From Patescibacteria group bacterium (GTDB taxonomy: Bacteria; Patescibacteriota; Minisyncoccia; Minisyncoccales; Staskawiczbacteraceae), in the NCBI GenBank assembly GCA_022703425.1, contig JAKLDQ010000003.1:1729-65728 (forward strand): DNA of 64,000 bases, read 5' to 3'. Under the pieces are notes generated by a model. The model searched no databases and was not told the origin of the DNA. It saw only the letters and a list, made by a program, of their open reading frames with translations. The translations under genes and the position numbers were made by a program. This document shows positions 1,854-47,652 of the stretch, piece after piece; the first letter of the stretch is position 1, and every line of letters begins with the position of its first letter.

Positions 1854-2969
1854 ATGAAAATAGTTTTTACCGGCGGAGGCACCGGAGGGCACGTATTTCC
1901 GCTTGTTTCAATAATCAGAGAAATAAGGAGACTGTACCCAAAAAAAGATTTGGAGTGCTATTACTTTGGTCCCAAGGATGAGTTCGGGCTTATTTTACTT
2001 GCTCAGGAAGACATGATAATTAAAAAAATTGTTTCCGGAAAAATAAGAAGGTATTTTTCATTAGAAAACATTGTTGATGTTTTATTCAAAATTCCTTTTG
2101 GATTTATCCAGTCGCTTTTTTTGCTCGGTTTTATTAATCCGCAGCTTGTCTTCAGTAAAGGGGGATCGGGGTCAATAGCTGTTACGTATGCCGCGAGAGT
2201 TCTTGGTATTCCGGTCTTTTTGCACGAGTCGGACGTAGTGCCCGGCCTTTCAAACCAAATAACGTCAAAATGGGCAAAAAAAATCTTTACGTCGTTTGAG
2301 AAGACGGAATATTTTGACCTTAAAAAAGTTACTATTACGGGAAATCCAATCAGAAAAGAAATTTTGGAAGGGGACCTGGAAAAAGCAAAAAAAATATTTG
2401 ACCTTACGCTATCAAAACCTGTGATTTTATTTTCGGGCGGTTCACAAGGGGCACAGGCGATAAATGATTTCGTTTTACTTATTCTAAATGAACTTTTGAA
2501 GGAATTTGAAGTAATACACGTCTGCGGGAAGGATAATCTTGAGCAGGTCAGGAATGAGGCGCAGGTTGTGCTTGAAAAGGATCTTGAAAAATATTACCAT
2601 CCTGTGGGAATTTTGGACGAAGAAAAAATAAAGCACGCATATAAGGCAGCAGATTTCATAATATCCAGATCGGGAGCAGGATCTATATTTGAGATAGCTG
2701 CGGTTGGAAAACCCAGCATTCTTGTTCCTTTGCCTTCTGCTGCGGGAGACCATCAGGCGAAAAATGCGTATGTATACGCAAAAACCGGGGCCGCAGTCAT
2801 TCTTGAACAGGACAATCTCACGCCGCACTTTTTTTCTGAAAAATTTCACGGGCTGATTATGAAACCTGAAGTAATGGAAAAAATGTCCGAGGCTGCCCTG
2901 AGATTTTCAAAACCTTTTGCTGCCAAAGCAGTGGCGAGGGAAATACTTGAGTTTTTTTCTGTACAATAA
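1854..2969 (+). CDS. murG: UDP-GlcNAc:lipid I N-acetylglucosaminyltransferase MurG
   Basis: GGGTGGHVFP N-terminal motif, SRSGAGSIFE and DHQ..NA C-terminal motifs typical of MurG. Confidence 0.92.
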   Translation: MKIVFTGGGTGGHVFPLVSIIREIRRLYPKKDLECYYFGPKDEFGLILLAQEDMIIKKIVSGKIRRYFSLENIVDVLFKIPFGFIQSLFLLGFINPQLVFSKGGSGSIAVTYAARVLGIPVFLHESDVVPGLSNQITSKWAKKIFTSFEKTEYFDLKKVTITGNPIRKEILEGDLEKAKKIFDLTLSKPVILFSGGSQGAQAINDFVLLILNELLKEFEVIHVCGKDNLEQVRNEAQVVLEKDLEKYYHPVGILDEEKIKHAYKAADFIISRSGAGSIFEIAAVGKPSILVPLPSAAGDHQAKNAYVYAKTGAAVILEQDNLTPHFFSEKFHGLIMKPEVMEKMSEAALRFSKPFAAKAVAREILEFFSVQ

Positions 2970-2970
2970 A

Positions 2971-4482
2971 ATGAATATTTGGAAAAAAGAAAAAATAAGA
3001 GTTAGGATTGCACCGTCTCCGACGGGCGCTTTACATATTGGAACTGCGCGAAGCGCGCTTTTTAATTATTTGTTTGCAAAAAAGAACAAAGGATCATTTA
3101 TCCTCAGGATTGAAGATACCGACCTTGAAAGATCGGATTTGAAATGGACACAGGATATAATCGATGGTTTAAAATGGCTGGGAATTGAATGGGATGAGGG
3201 TCCTGATATCGGCGGTGCGTTCGGCCCCTATAAACAAACTCAGCGCATTGAGTCGTATACAAAATACCTCGAAAAACTTTTGGGCGAGGACAAAGCATAT
3301 TTCTGCTTTTGCTCTTCAAAAGATCTCGAAGAAAAAAGGCAGGAACAAATGACTAGGGGAGCGGCTCCAAAATATGACGGAACATGTGCTCATCTTTCAA
3401 AAGAAACCGTCAAAAAAAATATTTCGGAAGGGAGGCCGTCTGTCATCCGGTTTAGAATGCACGAGAAGAAAATAAAATTTAAGGACCTGATAAGGGGGGA
3501 AATCGAATTCGATACCGGACTGATGGGGGATATTGTTATTGCAAAAGACACAAAAACTCCGCTGTATAATTTTGCAGTGGTTGTTGATGATTATGAGATG
3601 CAAATTTCGCATGTAATCCGAGGCGAAGACCACATTGCAAATACGCCGAAACAAATGATGCTGCAGGATGCGCTTTCGTTTAAGCCGCCGGCATATGCCC
3701 ATATTCCTTTAATCCTTGCTCCTGATCGCTCAAAGATGAGTAAAAGGTATGGGTCTGTATCAATCTCAGATTATAAAAACATGGGTTATTTGCCCGAGGC
3801 AGTTATAAATTTTATGGCATTGCTTGGCTGGAATCCGGGAACTGAAAAAGAAATCTTTTCGCTGTCACAGCTTGAAAAAGAATTTTCGCTGGACAAGGTT
3901 CAAAAAGCGGGCGCCGTTTTTAACATTCAACGGCTGGATTTTATAAACGGATACTATATCCGCGAGAAATCGGATAAAAAGGTTGCTGAGCTTTGCTTGC
4001 CGTATCTGATGTCTGCCGGATTGATTGACGGGAACCGAAAAATCAAAGGAGGAGAAGAAGTTTCGGAAAAAAAGCTTGAAAAAATAATCCAGGCATACAA
4101 GGCGCGGCTGAAAAAACTTTCTGAAATTGTTGAACTTGCAGATTTCTTTTTCAAGGAAAAGCTGGAATACAACATGAATAAGTTAAAATGGGGGACTATG
4201 GATTATGCACAGACAATTGAATCGCTAAATTATTCAGAGAAAATATTGTCTGAAATTGATAATTGGGAGCAGAAGATTTTAGAAGAGAAGTTGATGGGTG
4301 CAGCAACAAAATTCAATTTGGAAAAAGGATATCCGGAGAAGAACAGGGGATACTTGCTTTGGCCGCTGCGAGTCGCCCTTTCTGCAAAGGAAGCGTCTGC
4401 CAGTCCGTTTGAGATTGCAGATATTTTGGGAAAGGAAAAAACGTTGCAGAGAATAAACGATGCAATAGAGGCGCTCGCCTAG
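2971..4482 (+). CDS. gltX: glutamate--tRNA ligase
   Basis: RIAPSPTGALHIGTAR (HIGH) and KMSKR (KMSKS) class I motifs. Start moved to ATG 2971 (MNIWKKEKIRVRIAPSPTG); the ORF-track start 2917 overlaps murG. Confidence 0.93.
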   Translation: MNIWKKEKIRVRIAPSPTGALHIGTARSALFNYLFAKKNKGSFILRIEDTDLERSDLKWTQDIIDGLKWLGIEWDEGPDIGGAFGPYKQTQRIESYTKYLEKLLGEDKAYFCFCSSKDLEEKRQEQMTRGAAPKYDGTCAHLSKETVKKNISEGRPSVIRFRMHEKKIKFKDLIRGEIEFDTGLMGDIVIAKDTKTPLYNFAVVVDDYEMQISHVIRGEDHIANTPKQMMLQDALSFKPPAYAHIPLILAPDRSKMSKRYGSVSISDYKNMGYLPEAVINFMALLGWNPGTEKEIFSLSQLEKEFSLDKVQKAGAVFNIQRLDFINGYYIREKSDKKVAELCLPYLMSAGLIDGNRKIKGGEEVSEKKLEKIIQAYKARLKKLSEIVELADFFFKEKLEYNMNKLKWGTMDYAQTIESLNYSEKILSEIDNWEQKILEEKLMGAATKFNLEKGYPEKNRGYLLWPLRVALSAKEASASPFEIADILGKEKTLQRINDAIEALA

Positions 4483-4493
4483 TTTTGCGGTTT

Positions 4494-13267: not shown

Positions 13268-13307
13268 ATTACACAATAATACCAAAAAAAAATTTGCAAC
13301 GCAATTT

Positions 13308-13342
13308 AAAAAAAAGCGGCCCAGGGACAGAGTCTCCGGGCC
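13308..13342 (-). terminator. intrinsic terminator of candidate ncRNA B
   Basis: Minus strand reads GGCCCGG...CUGGGCC hairpin followed by GC-U8. On the plus strand the A8 run precedes the hairpin, so it is minus-specific. Confidence 0.7.
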
Positions 13343-13810
13343 TTAAAGCAGAAGAGATGTTGGAAGGCAGTCGTCACGACGGATCGGAAGTGGCTATTTT
13401 ATGCGCGTGTGTCAAAGTTCTTGCGTGGGTGTGTGTTGCTTTGCCGGTAATCGGCAGGCCAAGGGGAGGGTGGAGGTGTGTATAGGATCTCCCGCTTGGT
13501 AATTTAGTGCATAACACAGCGTCAGGCACAGCTTTGAAAACACGGACGCATATCCGTAAGGATTTGCGGGCGCCGCCAGTGGCGCCATCACAGGGGCAGG
13601 ATGAGATGTTGTGAACGTTGGGCGGCCAAAAGGGAATGCCGAGATGTCAGGCAGGCAAACTGCGGCCCGGCTAAACCTCCGCAATTTAATTGCGGAACGG
13701 GACAAATGTCCTGTGAAAACATAATCGACAGCATTAGCAATGCTGTTAAAAACAACAAACAGACGCCTATCATTGATTTCCTCCGTGTACTCTTCTGGAA
13801 GGTGCTGATT
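13310..13810 (-). ncRNA. candidate structured ncRNA B (~500 nt), class unknown
   Basis: G+C-rich with no credible ORF. Bounded by its own consensus promoter and terminator. 5' CCAGAAGAG..GGAGG pairs with 3' CCUUCC..CUCUUCUG, and there are many local GC helices. Confidence 0.45.
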
Positions 13811-13816
13811 CGATTG

Positions 13817-13845
13817 ATTGTATATTTTTTATAAAACCGTGTCAA
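13817..13845 (-). promoter_or_regulatory. sigma70-like promoter of ncRNA B (TTGACA-17-TACAAT)
   Basis: Minus strand: TTGACA 13845-13840, 17-nt spacer, TACAAT 13822-13817. Confidence 0.6.
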
Positions 13846-13873
13846 ATGGCAGCAACCCCCTTGGGGTGTGAAT

Positions 13874-13911
13874 AAAAAAAAGAGGCATATCCAACATTTG
13901 TTGGATATGCC
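13874..13911 (-). terminator. intrinsic terminator of candidate ncRNA A
   Basis: Minus strand reads GGCAUAUCCAAC-AAAU-GUUGGAUAUGCC (12-bp perfect stem) followed by UC-U8. Confidence 0.8.
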
Positions 13912-14503
13912 CTGCGCAGTGCCTGATGGTGCGTTCGGTTGCACCGGTCGGGTACAGACATCTGCGCCTGAGGCAAAACGCTGTTTGCGGATGCGATAGA
14001 AATCGCGGATGGGTGCGGCAAAGTTTTTGCGCCGGAACCCCGACGTCTCGCAAGACGCGTTTGCCTTATGGAAAACAGCTATTTTAGTTGTCGGTGCCTC
14101 TGTTTTCCTGACAGGCACCTATGTAAGGTCGCCCACTATTTATCTCCTGTGTTGGGCGTTTGGGCTTTTTCCGGTGCAGTACCCGGTCTTCGATTGTTGG
14201 GTGAACTGCGGCGGATGAAAGCCGTTCGAGGGGAACCGCCCTCGAGCAGTAATTTGTGTCATAGCGCTTTTACTGCAAATGCGCTCAAATAGTCGTCCAA
14301 TGCACACAATACTCCATTGCTAGGGCCAGGCAGTAAGGCTCGTTTGTTGCCTTTCATACCCCTGGCCGGTTTCCGCGGCCGTCGTCGGGGAGCCATTTAA
14401 TAAGCAAATCGATAGCTTTGTCTTAGCATAAGCCGTTCCTTTCTAGCCAGCTGTGTCCCATAGGTGAAGGGATTTCGCCAGCGGTAAAGTGTGCAACCTT
14501 CCT
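13876..14503 (-). ncRNA. candidate structured ncRNA A (~630 nt), class unknown
   Basis: G+C-rich and ORF-free, bounded by a consensus promoter and a strong terminator on the minus strand. Confidence 0.45.
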
Positions 14504-14510
14504 AGTATTA

Positions 14511-14539
14511 ATAATATCATATAAGCAAGGCCTTGTCAA
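14511..14539 (-). promoter_or_regulatory. sigma70-like promoter of ncRNA A (TTGACA-17-TATTAT)
   Basis: Minus strand: TTGACA 14539-14534, 17-nt spacer, TATTAT 14516-14511. Confidence 0.6.
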
Positions 14540-14589
14540 GTGGCATAAAAGCAATCAAAAACAGGGCTCTTTCGCCCCCGCTTTTTAAA

Positions 14590-25114: not shown

Positions 25115-25274
25115 TGGAGTCGGCAGGACTCGAACCTGAAACCTCTTGCTTATTTCCATCGGCCTCAGATGATTTCCCGGGAGCCCAATTCCATTGGGCA
25201 TTGCGATTACATCTGAGAAGCTGGTACAAGCCGTGGAAATTTTGCAAGCGCTCTCCCAATTGAGCTACGACCCC
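25115..25274 (-). tRNA. tRNA-Ala-like gene with a 94-nt structured segment in place of the 7-nt anticodon loop
   Basis: GGGGTCG/CGACTCC acceptor (G3:U70), D arm GCTC-AATTGGGA-GAGC, anticodon stem CTTGC/GCAAG, variable AGGTT, T arm TCAGG-TTCGAGT-CCTGC. 94 nt lie between the anticodon-stem strands and fold into nested helices. Confidence 0.6.
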
Positions 25275-42397: not shown

Positions 42398-42401
42398 AAA
42401 A

Positions 42402-43037
42402 ATGGATTCAATAGAAAAACTTGCAAATATATTCAAAAAATTTCCGACGGTCGGCCCGAGGACGGCCAGCCGTTTTGTTTTTTACCTGATGAAACAGCCG
42501 AAGGAAAAAATTGAGGAATTCGCACAGGCAATTGTCGAGCTTAAAAATCAGATTAAATTTTGCCGATTTTGTTTTAATCCGTTCCAGCCGGACAGCACTA
42601 CGCCCGGGGAATTGTGCCATATCTGCCAAAATGCATCGCGGGAAAGAAAAATTTTGTGTGTTGTTGAAAAGGAAACAGATTTGGTTTCCATTGAAAAAGC
42701 AAAAAAATTCAAAGGAATTTATTTTGTTCTCGGCGGGTTGCTGGCTTCATATAAAAAAGAGGACATGGATAAAATCAGAATTGAGGAGTTGAAAGAAAGA
42801 ATAAAAGAATCATACAGATTCGGCATGCCAAAAGTTGATTTTGAAGAAGTTATAATTGCGATCAATCCAACTCCCGAGGGAAATGCAACGTCAATGTATG
42901 TTGAACGCGAATTGAAACAAATAACATCTCCCACCCCGTTTAAAATCACTCATCTTGCAAAAGGAATTCCTGTCGGAGGCGAACTCGAATATGCCGACGA
43001 CGAAACATTGGAATCTGCCTTTGAAGGAAGGAAATAA
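42402..43037 (+). CDS. recR: recombination protein RecR
   Basis: FPTVGPRTASRFVFYL (HhH), C4 zinc finger (C..C...C..C) and a Toprim domain. Start at ATG 42402. Confidence 0.93.
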   Translation: MDSIEKLANIFKKFPTVGPRTASRFVFYLMKQPKEKIEEFAQAIVELKNQIKFCRFCFNPFQPDSTTPGELCHICQNASRERKILCVVEKETDLVSIEKAKKFKGIYFVLGGLLASYKKEDMDKIRIEELKERIKESYRFGMPKVDFEEVIIAINPTPEGNATSMYVERELKQITSPTPFKITHLAKGIPVGGELEYADDETLESAFEGRK

Positions 43038-43124
43038 CCTTAGGAGTAAAACCGTTCGAAAAATTTCGGGCTTTGTTTTTTTGTATCTTTTTGAATTGAT
43101 GATACATGAATGTAGAAGAAAAAA

Positions 43125-43566
43125 TGCAATAAAAGAGCGCCGAGTCGCTCCTTTGGACGGGGGTGAAATATCCAAAGGTTTGCGAAACGGCGCATTACAC
43201 GGCTTCTTGTGCTTCTTAGTTATGGTTCAAAGCGCGAGCCAAAAGCTTGGTCTGGGCTCATACAAGAAGCCGAATATTTGATGAGGAGGGGCCTCCGGAA
43301 AGGTGGTTCCGGTGCGAACGGGTTCCCGCTCCTCATCCGAGAGCTACAGCAGCTCTCGACTTATATTATAAGCTGACGGACGTCCGAGGATCTCGGGATA
43401 ATCGGAAGAGGGCATTTCTGCATATGCAGAGGGTTCAGAGTGGAAACTCGCGGGCCCGAGAAAATTGCGAGCACTATCTAAACCTGCCATACGGCCGTAC
43501 GGCAATGCGCTAAGCAGGCGCCCTTTCTTCGGGGTCCTGCTTTCCGTCAGCTAAAAGAGCAATGTT
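43125..43566 (-). ncRNA. candidate structured ncRNA C (~440 nt), class unknown
   Basis: G+C-rich, ORF-free block between recR and a convergent gene, with a minus-strand promoter and terminator. A 9-bp helix AGCUGACGG/CCGUCAGCU closes a ~200-nt 5' domain, and an 11-bp helix CGGCUUCUUGU/ACAAGAAGCCG lies in the 3' half. Confidence 0.42.
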
Positions 43567-43572
43567 TGCTCG

Positions 43573-43601
43573 TATAATAGCATAATAAAAAACAGGCGTC
43601 A
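43573..43601 (-). promoter_or_regulatory. sigma70-like promoter of ncRNA C (TTGACG-17-TATTAT)
   Basis: Minus strand: TTGACG 43601-43596 (inside the upstream terminator loop), 17-nt spacer, TATTAT 43578-43573. Confidence 0.5.
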
Positions 43602-43615
43602 ACCCGCCTGTTTTT
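43586..43615. terminator. bidirectional intrinsic terminator
   Basis: A6-CAGGCG-TCAACC-CGCCTG-T6, overlapping the last codons of the 43599-43982 gene. Confidence 0.75.
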
Positions 43616-43982
43616 TACGTCTTTGTTTTTCAGCACTCCTCACTTGGTGCTCGTCCATTCCGAAATGATGCGCTATTTCATGCCATACTGTATCTTTAAT
43701 GGCTTTTCTAATTGCATCGGGCGTCACGAATGCCTGCTCGATTGGATTTTTGAAAATTGTAATTTTATCTGGCAGAACCTGTCCGTATTGTTCTCTTTTT
43801 GTTAATGGAATGCCTTCGTATAATCCAAAAAGAAGCGCTCCTCTAAGCCTTAATTTATGTATCTGCTCAGGCGAGGGATTGTCTTCGATAACAATATCGA
43901 CGTTTTTCAATCTCTGCAGAAATTTTTCGTCAATCGCTTCAATTCCCTCTTTCACCAGATTCTCGAATTCTTCGTATGTCAT
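43599..43982 (-). CDS. minimal zinc metallopeptidase-like protein (DUF1025/zincin-like)
   Basis: HEIAHHFG (HExxH) near the C-terminus and IVIEDNPSPEQ...LFGLYEGIPLT, typical of this small family. Start at MTYEEFENL (43982). Confidence 0.72.
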   Translation of the reverse strand: MTYEEFENLVKEGIEAIDEKFLQRLKNVDIVIEDNPSPEQIHKLRLRGALLFGLYEGIPLTKREQYGQVLPDKITIFKNPIEQAFVTPDAIRKAIKDTVWHEIAHHFGMDEHQVRSAEKQRRKKQAG

Positions 43983-44038
43983 ATCAGCATTATACAAGCA
44001 AAAAAGCGTTTTTTCAACGCTTTTTTGCAATCATTTAA

Positions 44039-47000
44039 TTATAATGTCGGCCAGGGTTCGCTGGATTTAATTTTTGCGATTCTGGCTTTAAGTTCTTTAT
44101 TTGCCTTGAAGTCCTCGTTTTTTGCTTTTTGTGAATCAAGCCAAGCATTAAATCCCAAAGCTCCCGACTTGTACATCCAAATTCCGAAAAGTCCGAGAAG
44201 CAGCGGGATAAAGAACGAGTCAAACAGTAAATTGTTTGTCAGACCAGTATTAATGTCTGTTACCCCCAATACTCCGGTTCTGGTTACAACGATATTTGCA
44301 TTGCCGGTTATCGGATTTGAACTTTCGGCTGTAACCGTGACGCTGTTTGTAAGAGTTGTTGTGCCGTATGAAAAGTTTGCGGCCGAAGCAACCTGTGCGG
44401 AATATGTTATTGTCACCATCTGGCCGGCAGGAATTGAGTTTATCAAGACTCCGTATACGATATCATTTCCGCTGTAGTTATAATTTGCTCCGCTTACAAC
44501 CACGCTGTTATTCTGCAAAATCAATCTTGATGGCAAAAGGTCCTTTACAACAACATTTCTCACCTCCTGAGAGCTGTTTGCCTGGATTGTAATTGTAAAG
44601 TTCAGGATATCTGATGGCGAAGCTGCTGCGCTTGTTGACCAGTTGAAGTTGCCCGATGAAAGGTTTCTGACAGTTTTGTTTACCGTCAAAAGATTTCCAA
44701 CATTGCCTGTTGAAAATGTCATGTCCTGCCCGTAAATCGGTCCGCCTGCACCCTGCGCGACGGCTCTGAAGTGATAATAAGTGTTTGCTGATAATCCTGT
44801 AATGTTCTGGCTGAATGTGTTGTTATAATTCATCTGCTGGTGCTGAGTTTCATACCCGTATGAAGTTGTTGTTCCCCACTGGAACCAGACATAAACATTA
44901 TTGTAGTATCCGCTGTTGTATCCGTTATATCCGGACAGATATCCGTTTAATGTTGCCTGATTTGTAGATATGTTTGTCGCCGAATTTGTCTGGACTGAAA
45001 GTGTTTGCTGGATGCAGGATGAGTTTTGGCATCCGTACTGGCAGTATTCAATCAGTTCGTCCTGGTTTCCGCAGGAATCAAACCAATATAATGAATTACC
45101 AACGCAGCTTCTATAGTTATGGTCTGTGCAGGTTGTCTGGCAGCTTCCATTTGAACATTGCTGGTTGGAAGAACATTCTGTTGTCAGCCTGTCTTCTGTC
45201 GAGCTTGAGCAATTTGAATTGACTGTACCGGCATTATTGCAGATATAGGTTCTGTATGTTTTATAAACATCTCCATTCTTACAGAAAGGATTTCCGATAT
45301 ATCCGTTTGTTCCGCAATCTGCATTGCTATCGCAGGCGATATCAACATCCTCGCATTGGCCGTTTGAACAGGTCTGTGTTGAAGAACAGTTTGTTGCCAA
45401 TCTGTTTTCTGTGTTGGTCGAACAGCTTGAGCTTGGAGTGCCGGGATTGTTACAGACATATGTTCTGTATGTTCTGTAAACGTCGCCGTTCTGGCAGAAT
45501 GGATTTCCTATGAATCCGTTGGTTCCGCAGTCAGCGTTGCACGAGCAGGCAATATCAACATCTTCACATTGTCCGTTTGAACAGGTTTGCGAAGAAGAGC
45601 AATTAGTCTGAAGCCTGTCTTCTGTCGTATTTGAGCAAGAAGACGAAGGAGTTCCCGGATTTGTACAAATGTATGTTCTAAATGTCTTATAAACATCTCC
45701 GTCTCTGCAGAAAGGATTTCCGATGTAGCCATTGGTTCCGCATTCAGCATTTGAACTGCATGCAATTTCAAGATCAATACAGCTTCCTCCGCTACAGGTC
45801 TGATTTGACGTGCAATTTGTTAAAAGCCGGTTTTCATTATCTGTTGAGCAAGATGAATTTGGCGTTCCGGGATTGTTGCAGACGTATGATCTGTAAGTCT
45901 TGTAAACATCACCGTCATAACAAAATGGATTTCCGATGTAGCCATTGGTTCCGCATTCAGCATTTGTAGAACACTCTATATGCAAATCCTGGCACTGCCC
46001 GTTAGAGCACGTCTGGTTTGCTGTGCAATTTGTCATGAGTCGGTCTTCCTGAGAAGAAGAACATGAAGATGCAATTGTACCAGGGTTGTTGCAGGTGTAA
46101 ATTTTGAACGTTTTATAAACATCTCCGTTCCTGCAAAAAGGAGAGCCGATATATCCGTCTGTTCCGCAATCTGAATTTGAATCGCATGCGACGTTTGCGC
46201 ATTGTCCGTTAGAACAGGTTTGTCCTGATGCGCACGTTGTGATTAATCTGTCTTCAGTTGTATTAGTACAGGATGAAGCGGGAGTCCCCGGGTTTGCACA
46301 AATATATGTTTTATATGCTCTGTAGACATCTCCGTCTCTGCAGAACGGGTTTCCGATGTAGCCGTTTGTTCCGCAATCTGAATTGCATCTGCAGGCAACG
46401 GGCAAGTCCTGGCACTGTCCGTTAGAACATGTCTGGCTGGTTGTGCACTGGGTAACTAAAGTTGGCACAGTTGCATTTGAACAAACTGATGCAGGTGTTC
46501 CGGGATTTGAACATGTATATGTTTTTATATTTTGATATACTCCATTGCCTTGGCAGAAAGGGCCGCCAACTGGACCGTCTGCTCCGCAGTCAGAGTTTCT
46601 ATAGCAGGCAATATTTACACACTGTCCGTTAGAGCATGTTTGGCTCGATGTGCAATTTGTCATCAGCCTGTTTTCTGTTGAATTCGTGCAGGCAGATGCC
46701 GGTGTTCCGGGATTTGAACATGTGTATGTCTTGTAGGCTTTATAAACATCTCCGCTCTGGCAGAAAGGATTTCCAATATATCCGTCTGTTCCGCAGTCGG
46801 AGTTTCTATAACAGGTTACATTTGAACACTGTCCGTTTGAACAAACCTGATTTGTTAAACAGGATGTTACCAGTCTGCTCTCCGTTGAGTATGTGCAATT
46901 TGAAGCAGTTGTTCCCGGATTTACACAATCATATGTTTTATATGCTTTGTAGACATCTCCGCTCTGGCAGAAAGGATTTCCAATATATCCGTCTGTTCCG

Positions 47001-47596
47001 CAATCTGAATCGGTGCGGCAAACAATGTTTACACACTGAGCATTTTGGCACACCTGATTCGATGCACATGTTGTATAGATTTCTTCGCGATGTCCGCACG
47101 AATCGTACCAGTAAATCGCATTTCCGACGCACTGTTTGCTGGCATGAGAATTACAATTATGTCCGCACCTGAGCGTGCTTAACCATCTGTTGCCATATGT
47201 GCATGCGCTTCCAATCACGAAGTTATTTTGTGATGTACTCCATTTGCCAAGCACATTGTCACAGCATGAGCTCCATCCGCATCTTCCGCCATCAAAATAG
47301 CTGACGCAATCCATGTGCTCAACCTTGTCAAAACCTGCCAGCTGACAAACCTTCAATGCGGTTGTGCTGTCTAGGTTTAAAGCTCCCTGTCCGTGGTATT
47401 CGGAAGGAATTCTTCTATACCCGTACTGGGAAGCCAGGCTGTTTACGAAATCTCGGATTCCCATGGGATCCTTGTACCAATCCCCGATTGTGCTTGCCTG
47501 AACCGCCGAGCTGAAAGAGAAAAACAGCACAAAAATGGCAAGAGTGGCAAACCCCGCCTTTAATATTAAACCGAAAACATTTTTTTCTGCTTTCAT
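44039..47596 (-). CDS. giant secreted Cys-rich repeat surface protein with FN3-like and DUF11-like domains and a C-terminal sorting-like module
   Basis: Signal peptide and nine ~73-aa tandem repeats (C...[DE]CG[TA][DN]G.[IV]G.PFC..G.VY...[KR].Y.C.N.GT..S.C......RL.T.C...Q.CS.G.C). Then a Y-H-F-R-A-V FN3-like module and a DUF11-like repeat, ending ...TDINTGLTNNLLFDSFFIPLLLGLFGIWMYKSG. Confidence 0.85.
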   Translation of the reverse strand: MKAEKNVFGLILKAGFATLAIFVLFFSFSSAVQASTIGDWYKDPMGIRDFVNSLASQYGYRRIPSEYHGQGALNLDSTTALKVCQLAGFDKVEHMDCVSYFDGGRCGWSSCCDNVLGKWSTSQNNFVIGSACTYGNRWLSTLRCGHNCNSHASKQCVGNAIYWYDSCGHREEIYTTCASNQVCQNAQCVNIVCRTDSDCGTDGYIGNPFCQSGDVYKAYKTYDCVNPGTTASNCTYSTESRLVTSCLTNQVCSNGQCSNVTCYRNSDCGTDGYIGNPFCQSGDVYKAYKTYTCSNPGTPASACTNSTENRLMTNCTSSQTCSNGQCVNIACYRNSDCGADGPVGGPFCQGNGVYQNIKTYTCSNPGTPASVCSNATVPTLVTQCTTSQTCSNGQCQDLPVACRCNSDCGTNGYIGNPFCRDGDVYRAYKTYICANPGTPASSCTNTTEDRLITTCASGQTCSNGQCANVACDSNSDCGTDGYIGSPFCRNGDVYKTFKIYTCNNPGTIASSCSSSQEDRLMTNCTANQTCSNGQCQDLHIECSTNAECGTNGYIGNPFCYDGDVYKTYRSYVCNNPGTPNSSCSTDNENRLLTNCTSNQTCSGGSCIDLEIACSSNAECGTNGYIGNPFCRDGDVYKTFRTYICTNPGTPSSSCSNTTEDRLQTNCSSSQTCSNGQCEDVDIACSCNADCGTNGFIGNPFCQNGDVYRTYRTYVCNNPGTPSSSCSTNTENRLATNCSSTQTCSNGQCEDVDIACDSNADCGTNGYIGNPFCKNGDVYKTYRTYICNNAGTVNSNCSSSTEDRLTTECSSNQQCSNGSCQTTCTDHNYRSCVGNSLYWFDSCGNQDELIEYCQYGCQNSSCIQQTLSVQTNSATNISTNQATLNGYLSGYNGYNSGYYNNVYVWFQWGTTTSYGYETQHQQMNYNNTFSQNITGLSANTYYHFRAVAQGAGGPIYGQDMTFSTGNVGNLLTVNKTVRNLSSGNFNWSTSAAASPSDILNFTITIQANSSQEVRNVVVKDLLPSRLILQNNSVVVSGANYNYSGNDIVYGVLINSIPAGQMVTITYSAQVASAANFSYGTTTLTNSVTVTAESSNPITGNANIVVTRTGVLGVTDINTGLTNNLLFDSFFIPLLLGLFGIWMYKSGALGFNAWLDSQKAKNEDFKANKELKARIAKIKSSEPWPTL
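45130..47025 (-). repeat. tandem ~220-bp coding repeats (9 units) inside the giant surface-protein gene
   Basis: Repeated nucleotide blocks such as ggatttcc[ga]at[ag]ta[gt]cc[ag]t[ct][tg]gttccgca[ag]tc recur about every 220 bp. The borders are approximate. Confidence 0.75.
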
Positions 47597-47652
47597 GTAT
47601 TTTGCCCCAATCAAAGCAAAAAGCCGAATTATGGGCAGTTAATTATAGTAGT

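Follow-up and report, generated by a model that had tools for sequence, protein, structure and literature searches.

A predicted structured noncoding RNA beside recR in a Patescibacteria genome and its relatives in Parcubacteria

What occupies the gap between recR and the convergent gene that follows it in a Patescibacteria group bacterium of the Staskawiczbacteraceae? In the 64,000-nucleotide (nt) stretch of contig JAKLDQ010000003.1 that was analysed, hereafter the window, recR lies at 42399-43037 on the plus strand and the convergent Zincin_1 gene at 43599-44030 on the minus strand, and the interval of ~560 nt between them contains short junk open reading frames (ORFs) and no others. An initial annotation of the DNA had described this interval as a G+C-rich block with junk ORFs only and had proposed that it encodes a stand-alone noncoding RNA (ncRNA) on the minus strand, here called unit C, that is not RNase P. 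The composition was as described (52% G+C in unit C, 41% in the whole window), and the G>C skew of unit C is positive on the plus strand. The best GTDB matches of the RecR protein, 56-60% identical, place the organism in Parcubacteria near Ca. Staskawiczbacteria; its closest RecR protein, from "Parcubacteria bacterium Licking1014_1", is 67% identical. Signals, fold, relatives and the absence of a known-family match together support the proposal, and we conclude that unit C is probably a real structured ncRNA of a new family, encoded on the minus strand.

Focusing on the boundaries of the unit, a consensus scan identified a sigma-70-type promoter on the minus strand at 43574-43602 (TTGACG at 43602-43597, a 17-nt spacer and TATTAT with a TG extension at 43579-43574). 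Its -35 hexamer falls within the loop/arm of the Zincin_1 terminator, a bidirectional hairpin of 13 base pairs (bp) with A and T tracts on either side (43586-43617) that bounds unit C, so that the nesting of promoter in the upstream gene's terminator seen in the initial annotation was recovered (43602-43574 within 43586-43617). The annotation had also ended the unit at GAGCG-ACUCGG-CGCUC and its tail, where the scan likewise called a minus-strand intrinsic terminator (43154-43131, then UUUUAUUGCAUUUUUU). No plus-strand promoter for unit C was found in the consensus signal scan, and recR has a terminator-like hairpin and T run at 43054-43081, before unit C. Judged by these signals, transcription would start ~7 nt past TATTAT, near 43567, and stop at the intrinsic terminator around 43135-43119, giving an ncRNA of ~450 nt from an independent gene antisense to recR.

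The predicted fold of this transcript is far more stable than that of dinucleotide-shuffled sequences. The minimum free energy of the whole unit on the minus strand was -211.7 kcal/mol, compared with -146 +/- 5.8 for the shuffles (z = -11.4); the plus strand gave z = -8.2, and the 5' domain, or core, and the 3' half each scored well by themselves (z = -5.3 and -7.3, respectively). All three long-range helices pointed out in the initial annotation are present as exact inverted repeats: P1, AGCTGACGGA/TCCGTCAGCT (43371-43380 and 43543-43552, spacing 162 nt), the 11-bp helix CGGCTTCTTGT/ACAAGAAGCCG (43200-43210 and 43262-43272) and GATGAGGAG.../...CTCCTCATC (43280-43291 and 43326-43337). Its description of a closed, hairpin-bearing 5' domain also stood, but the closing helix P1 has 10 bp rather than 9, and the domain has five hairpins (H2, three inside P3 and a last one) rather than four.

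We surveyed ~110 recR loci from species-representative genomes, Joint Genome Institute (JGI) metagenomes and assemblies, denoted here by L numbers, and found six distinct family members, all directly downstream of recR: the window, L002, L024, L026, L084 and L108 (L108-111 carry the RNA gene at the recR-adjacent site and were counted as one member). In the five other loci, from Parcubacteria genomes or metagenome contigs, the predicted RNA gene occupies the same position, antisense to recR, with its promoter at the recR-distal end and a terminator adjoining the recR stop codon; minus-strand promoters of the form TTGACA-16/17-TAnnAT stand at the equivalent place in L084, L026, L024 and L002. 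L024 shares the window's gene order, with a 774-nt gap between recR and a convergent Zincin_1 gene. The family did not emerge from primary sequence: nhmmer with unit C against all fetched loci and the window matched only L021-23, same-species contigs from three samples that are identical across unit C and therefore offer no variation for covariation analysis. Samples ERZ761563, ERZ27257456 and SRR4244739 contain the organism. Among further RecR relatives L108 was the sole addition, and L101-107 and L112-118 lacked the RNA.

The shared element is a domain of 118-235 nt, present in all six members and closed by P1 (5' ARYUGRCAGG, 3' CCUGUCARYU). Its parts follow one order throughout: P1, H2, a UUAR junction, P3 with one to three hairpins, a second junction, a last hairpin and the 3' strand of P1. 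P3 is built from different strands in different members (AUGUU/AACAU in L084 and L108, GUGUU/AACAU in L026, GCAUU/AAUGC in the window), while the sequence kept comprises UGRCAGG/CCUGUCA of P1, UUAR before P3 and, in three members, GAA after P3; the latter junction reads GAA in L024, L026 and L084/L108 and CCUCU in the window. The smallest core, that of L026, is only ~120 nt. Outside the core, L002, L024 and L026 have 5' extensions of 160-250 nt, and the window has a 3' extension instead. This comparison showed the 5' ~185 nt of unit C (43552-43371) to be the predicted multi-helix junction of a previously uncatalogued RNA family. A circularly permuted arrangement, in which the window's 3' extension would equal the 5' extension of L024 and L002, was considered and dropped, as no similarity was seen.

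Because MAFFT on the full cores aligned P1 ends only, covariation was measured on equal-length helix blocks. In a hand-made, gap-free block alignment of the P1 and P3 strands from the six sequences, 97.8% of cells held standard pairs and 8 of the 15 pairs had changed on both sides, a result equalled by 0 of 500 shuffles; with the registers slid by 1-3 columns, pairing fell to 30-48%. As an independent test of homology, a covariance model (R1) was trained on just two members, L084 and L108. With default filters R1 found its own training sequences and nothing else, and it was subsequently run with filters off. Across the window, L002, L024 and L026 (88 kb, both strands) its top match was 43370-43553 on the minus strand of the window, at 18.6 bits and a rough E-value of ~0.003, aligned end to end with P1, H2, P3, the last enclosed hairpin and the last hairpin in register. 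The second match was L026 on the minus strand (14.9 bits), the window plus strand gave no match at E<=10, and other recR loci (98 kb) scored at best 12.4 bits. The R1-made alignment of the window, L026 and L108 was 96.9% paired, with 18 double-change pairs. Two pattern scans of viral contigs gave chance matches only, none confirmed by R1. Conservation and covariation in relatives, to which the initial annotation had looked, were therefore found for the 5' ~185 nt only, where P1 and P3 covary and R1 picks out the window.

Which strand is the RNA? The helices of the window are nearly all perfect Watson-Crick, so its sequence alone cannot fix the strand. A plus-strand product, either a structured 3' untranslated region or a read-through product of recR, would be compatible with the strong plus-strand fold (z = -8.2), the positive G>C skew and the Zincin_1 terminator, which would end a plus-strand transcript, and L002 scores higher with R1 on that strand. 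We nevertheless regard it as highly unlikely: the plus strand lacks a promoter, a terminator-like site belonging to recR precedes unit C, R1 matches the window on the minus strand only, and the minus-strand promoter is conserved. The relatives carry G.U pairs in P1 (L024, L026 and L108) and five in H2 (L084/L108), and these are valid on the minus strand only, because they become A.C mismatches on the opposite strand. Taken together, the G.U pairs of the relatives, the conserved promoter and the strand-specific R1 match place the predicted RNA on the minus strand.

Selection on the core was assessed by comparing L084 and L108. Nucleotide identity was 91.6% for the RNA core, 83.8% for recR, 83.6% for dnaB, 80.3% for the sortase gene, 80.2% for the linker and terminator and 67.9% for the leader/promoter. 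By this measure, constraint on the core exceeds that on the protein-coding genes beside it, the pattern of purifying selection.

Several observations weigh against a minus-strand RNA gene of a new family. The two strands of the window fold alike (-184.9 and -183.8 kcal/mol). The spread is patchy, with recR abutting Zincin_1 or a sortase gene in many close relatives. The strongly structured 3' half (43115-43369, ~240 nt) had no relative detectable by nhmmer among the fetched recR loci. Both alignments lean towards structure, one being hand-fitted and the other model-fitted, and there are only six distinct sequences. E-values from R1 are rough, and L084, a true member, scores 17.3 bits on its reverse strand, near the 18.6 of the window; L002 scores higher on the plus strand; and L024 was not found by R1.

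Some of these observations would suit a spacer that is rich in hairpins but has no function, or a relic left by an inserted element; the palindromes would then exist at the level of DNA, with no RNA under selection. Near-perfect Watson-Crick helices that fold alike on both strands would be expected of such a relic, as would patchy presence and variable gap content (another RNA in L097, an 89-amino-acid (aa) ORF in L106). Repeats flank unit C as well: a 17-nt direct repeat, 82% identical, brackets it at 43064-43080 (TTTCGGGCTTTGTTTTT) and 43614-43630 (TTTACGTCTTTGTTTTT), and inverted repeats rich in A/T occupy 43074-86 and 43582-94. These could mark an insertion, but are more likely a chance product of terminator tails. 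A relic would not account for a core better conserved than the flanking genes, for compensatory changes and strand-specific G.U pairs in relatives, or for a promoter conserved in all members, and no second copy was found in the window or in phages and no tandem repeats were present; we judge it improbable. A miniature inverted-repeat transposable element or other repeat element was rejected (no second copy in the window, no tandem repeats), and blastn against phages gave no match to unit C.

The family can also be read in cis. A P1-closed junction followed by a terminator is the layout of transcription-terminating riboswitches, and L002, L024, L084 and L108 have a conserved terminator, AAGCCGAUUGAAA...UCAAUCGGCUU with a U tract, ~12-15 nt after the P1 3' strand; L026 has one additional small hairpin between the P1 3' strand and its terminator, and the stem GCCGAUUGAAA is conserved in sequence across these members. 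The P1 junction would then be an aptamer that controls the terminator and gates read-through, which would run antisense to recR, into recR-dnaB. Against this, there is no ORF downstream on the RNA strand; no conserved antiterminator pairing was found by eye, a candidate in L084 being absent from L024; and in the window copy no U tract follows the hairpin and no Rfam riboswitch model matches. The conserved terminator, moreover, also stands 3' of the 89-aa ORF of L106, which has no core, and for that reason is probably the bidirectional terminator of recR and lies outside the RNA family. We therefore consider a riboswitch-like element unlikely. The window lacks both this terminator and the GAA junction, and is treated here as a variant form that these absences do not exclude from the family.

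The comparison with known families that the initial annotation had proposed yielded no match. Rfam 15 at gathering thresholds, run over the whole window and seven related loci, gave nothing at unit C, and at E<=10 over unit C (42900-43800) and L084 3140-3460 the matches were at chance level; models for RNase P, 6S, signal recognition particle (SRP) RNA, transfer-messenger RNA (tmRNA) and riboswitches had no match at that threshold in either. ARAGORN called no tRNA or tmRNA at unit C and no tmRNA in the window and seven related loci. 6S and SRP RNA were accordingly set aside, having no model match and a different form (6S a rod with a central bubble, SRP RNA a helix 8 with a GNAR loop and conserved internal loops) where the conserved fold is a branched junction, as were tmRNA, which combines a tRNA-like domain (T arm, CCA-proximal acceptor) with a tag reading frame (negative with ARAGORN and Rfam), and known riboswitch classes (no aptamer match at E<=10, and no ORF on the RNA strand, since the terminator faces the recR 3' end). 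Also rejected were a guide array of TIGR or CRISPR type, as there are no tandem repeats and just two short two-copy direct repeats, and a small ORF or type I toxin, as the minus-strand ORFs lack a Shine-Dalgarno sequence and are not conserved (judged partly by eye).

One alternative deserves separate weighing: a housekeeping RNA (RNase P, 6S, SRP or tmRNA) so diverged that Rfam misses it. We counted in its favour that the window P1 (AGCUGACGG) resembles P1 of E. coli M1 RNA, and that the Bacillus SRP RNA gene lies in the dnaX-recR neighbourhood. The window RNA also contains GGAAAG and CUGAACCC. RNase P RNAs from the candidate phyla radiation (CPR) are known to escape Rfam thresholds: in 10 of 35 complete CPR genomes they were found only with lowered thresholds, and RF00010 matches were accepted down to 5 bits (Lui et al. 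2021, PMC8172020). However, with up to three mismatches allowed, CR-I (GAGGAAAGUCCGG; the J3/4-P4 5' strand) had no match on either strand of 43115-43620 and CR-V (ACAGAANCCGGCUUA; the P4 3' strand next to P2/P1) had none in unit C. A distance of ~65 nt separates the window's CUGAACCC from the P1 3' strand; neither CUGAACCC nor GGAAAG is kept in L084, L108 or L026. Dismissal of RNase P in the initial annotation was thus borne out. For the housekeeping RNAs as a group, the failure of every model at E<=10, the negative ARAGORN result, a core of ~120 nt in L026, the absence of the gene from the locus in many close relatives and a branched junction in place of a 6S/4.5S rod make such an identity scarcely credible.

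Among characterized systems, class A RNase P RNA is similar to unit C in whole-transcript size (~450 nt) and in having its own promoter and terminator, but unit C has no CR-I/P4, CR-V or S-domain, its P4-like strand pairs locally, and the family has a conserved core as short as 120 nt and a patchy presence at the locus. The lysine, FMN and SAM-I riboswitches share with it a P1 that closes a four- to six-way junction, and a terminator follows in 5 of the 6 family members (~12-15 nt after P1 in four) as in terminating riboswitches; the family differs in having no downstream ORF, conserved antiterminator or riboswitch-model match, and in its long structured extensions, 5' in L002, L024 and L026 and 3' in the window. 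Cloverleaf-type RNAs such as YrlA resemble the minimal member, L026, whose core is also a four-way junction with short joiners, in which a closing helix, a hairpin on the 5' side, a long central arm and a short hairpin on the 3' side meet; unlike tRNA-like RNAs and YrlA, however, it has no T-loop/D-loop consensus, and it was negative with ARAGORN and with the YrlA and tRNA models.

Unit C also bears a likeness in kind to the large orphan RNAs raiA motif RNA, OLE, ROOL and GOLLD. Like unit C, these are stand-alone genes with their own promoter and terminator, G+C-rich in an A+T-rich genome, with multi-helix junctions that carry conserved nucleotides, restricted to particular lineages and, when first described, without known biochemical function. 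Unit C matches none of their Rfam models, its core is smaller (~120-240 nt), and its family has so far been seen only beside recR, in a Parcubacteria subclade, in six sequences. The recR-adjacent family belongs to no catalogued Rfam family and in kind joins the orphan structured ncRNAs of bacteria.

How might such an RNA work? Under the preferred reading of unit C as a stand-alone ncRNA, P1 and the conserved junction would make up a surface that specifically binds a protein or small ligand, and the RNA would act in trans, there being no ORF beyond it on the same strand. In the window copy the U tract after the post-P1 hairpin would have been lost, so that transcription would read through into ~220 nt of lineage-specific structure and end at a new terminator. 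We place far less confidence in any specific biochemical role than in the existence of the RNA. More tentatively, and rather doubtfully, the P1-core domain may be a new functional RNA class specific to CPR/Parcubacteria, of which the window holds an expanded two-domain version; it could be a ligand-sensing aptamer by which transcription running antisense into recR-dnaB is gated, or else a junction that binds a protein or is catalytic. Conservation above that of the neighbouring protein genes, together with a multi-helix junction that covaries, makes it probable that the RNA does something these organisms need. CPR bacteria (Patescibacteria) have tiny genomes, are almost all uncultured, and have few described ncRNAs; G+C-rich, ORF-free gaps in their A+T-rich genomes hold real candidate RNA genes, and R1 with the six seed sequences provides a concrete basis for a wider search.

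Read from its predicted 5' end on the minus strand, unit C is laid out as follows. A leader hairpin, GAGCAAACAUUGCUC (43557-43571), may be truncated if transcription begins near 43567, as predicted. The P1 5' strand AGCUGACGGA (43543-43552; family motif ARYUGRCAGG) leads into H2, AAGCAGG..CCC-GAAGAAA-GGG..CCUGCUU (43512-43542), and then into P3 (43412-43508; GCAUU at 43508-43504 with AAUGC at 43416-43412), which encloses hairpins at 43486-43503, 43432-43484 and 43417-43430. The last core hairpin, UCCGA-UU-AUC-CCGA-GAU-CC-UCGGA (43383-43406), precedes the P1 3' strand UCCGUCAGCU (43371-43380; family motif CCUGUCARYU). After the core come a linker, UAUAAUAUAAGU, and the hairpin CGAGAGCU-GCUGU-AGCUCUCG (43338-43358; linker and hairpin together 43338-43370), without a U tract. 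By eye, this hairpin sits where other members have the terminator hairpin, and the linker is comparable to UUCUAAUAUAAAA of L024, which leads into the terminator. The window-specific 3' extension includes a long irregular hairpin, GAUGAGGAG...CUCCUCAUC (43280-43337), and a three-way junction with the 11-bp closing helix CGGCUUCUUGU/ACAAGAAGCCG (43200-43272). A long terminal hairpin, GCGCCG..UCGC..CCUUUGGAU / GUCCAAAGG..GCGA..CGGCGC (43119-43193), ends the unit; the short terminator hairpin GAGCG-ACUCGG-CGCUC (43150-43135), with its tail UUUUAUUGCAUUUUUU at 43134-43119, is the alternative to it.

Other loci hold different elements at the recR site. In L097-L099 (~2640-3010, plus strand) a different RNA-like unit lies past recR on the recR strand, with a TTGACA-17-TAAGAT promoter and a terminator; it includes a tRNA-like element whose T-arm-like hairpin, GGCCGGUUCGACUCCGGC, is similar to CAUGGGGGGUCGGUUCA in the 5' extension of L024, and it has no Rfam or ARAGORN match. 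The 89-aa ORF of L106/L107 (2434-3033, minus strand) has a strong Shine-Dalgarno sequence and stands behind a ~190-nt structured leader closed by GGUUACAGCUU/AAGCUGUAACC, a helix that resembles UACAGCUU/AAGCUGUA of the 5' extension of the L024 RNA. L007, L039 and L077 have ~370 ORF-free nt after recR, with G+C-rich plus-strand hairpins that carry UUCG/UUGC loops and an apparent closing helix ACCUAU/AUAGGU; the gap may represent one further small structured RNA of the recR site.

Elsewhere in the window are two further G+C-rich, ORF-free units on the minus strand, at 13290-13850 and 13860-14545, presumably units A and B of the initial annotation. Both come with a TTGACA-17-TAnnAT promoter on the minus strand and with an intrinsic terminator, and their folding z-scores are -4.1 and -3.3; neither has an Rfam match at E<=5 or was detected by the sequence of unit C or by R1. 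If the P1-core domain were indeed a new class, units A and B would suggest that these reduced genomes encode an unusually large set of long structured RNAs. A further segment, 25115-25274 on the minus strand, matches the Rfam tRNA model end to end over 160 nt at 45 bits, and ARAGORN calls no tRNA there; it has the look of a tRNA gene into which ~90 nt have been inserted. Lui et al. 2021 (PMC8172020) mention that tRNAs of CPR bacteria can contain group I introns.

The motif TGTCGCACAATAAA occurs in the window at 4493, 7295, 7903, 14590, 31990, 36038, 49843 and 53526 (five exact copies and three that differ by 1-2 mismatches). The inverted repeat ATTGT-N3-ACAAT is found within some of the copies, and the copies inspected lie at gene 3' ends. 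L024 carries the motif in exact form six times, and three of these copies fall in the stretch that separates the RNA promoter from the Zincin_1 gene. The motif is probably a regulatory or terminator-associated site. Adjoining Zincin_1 in the window, and likewise in several relatives, is a 1191-aa ORF (44039-47614, minus strand) with many ~45-aa Cys-rich repeats (CxxxxDCGTDGYIGNPFC...) and a predicted membrane anchor at its end, which looks like a giant surface protein.

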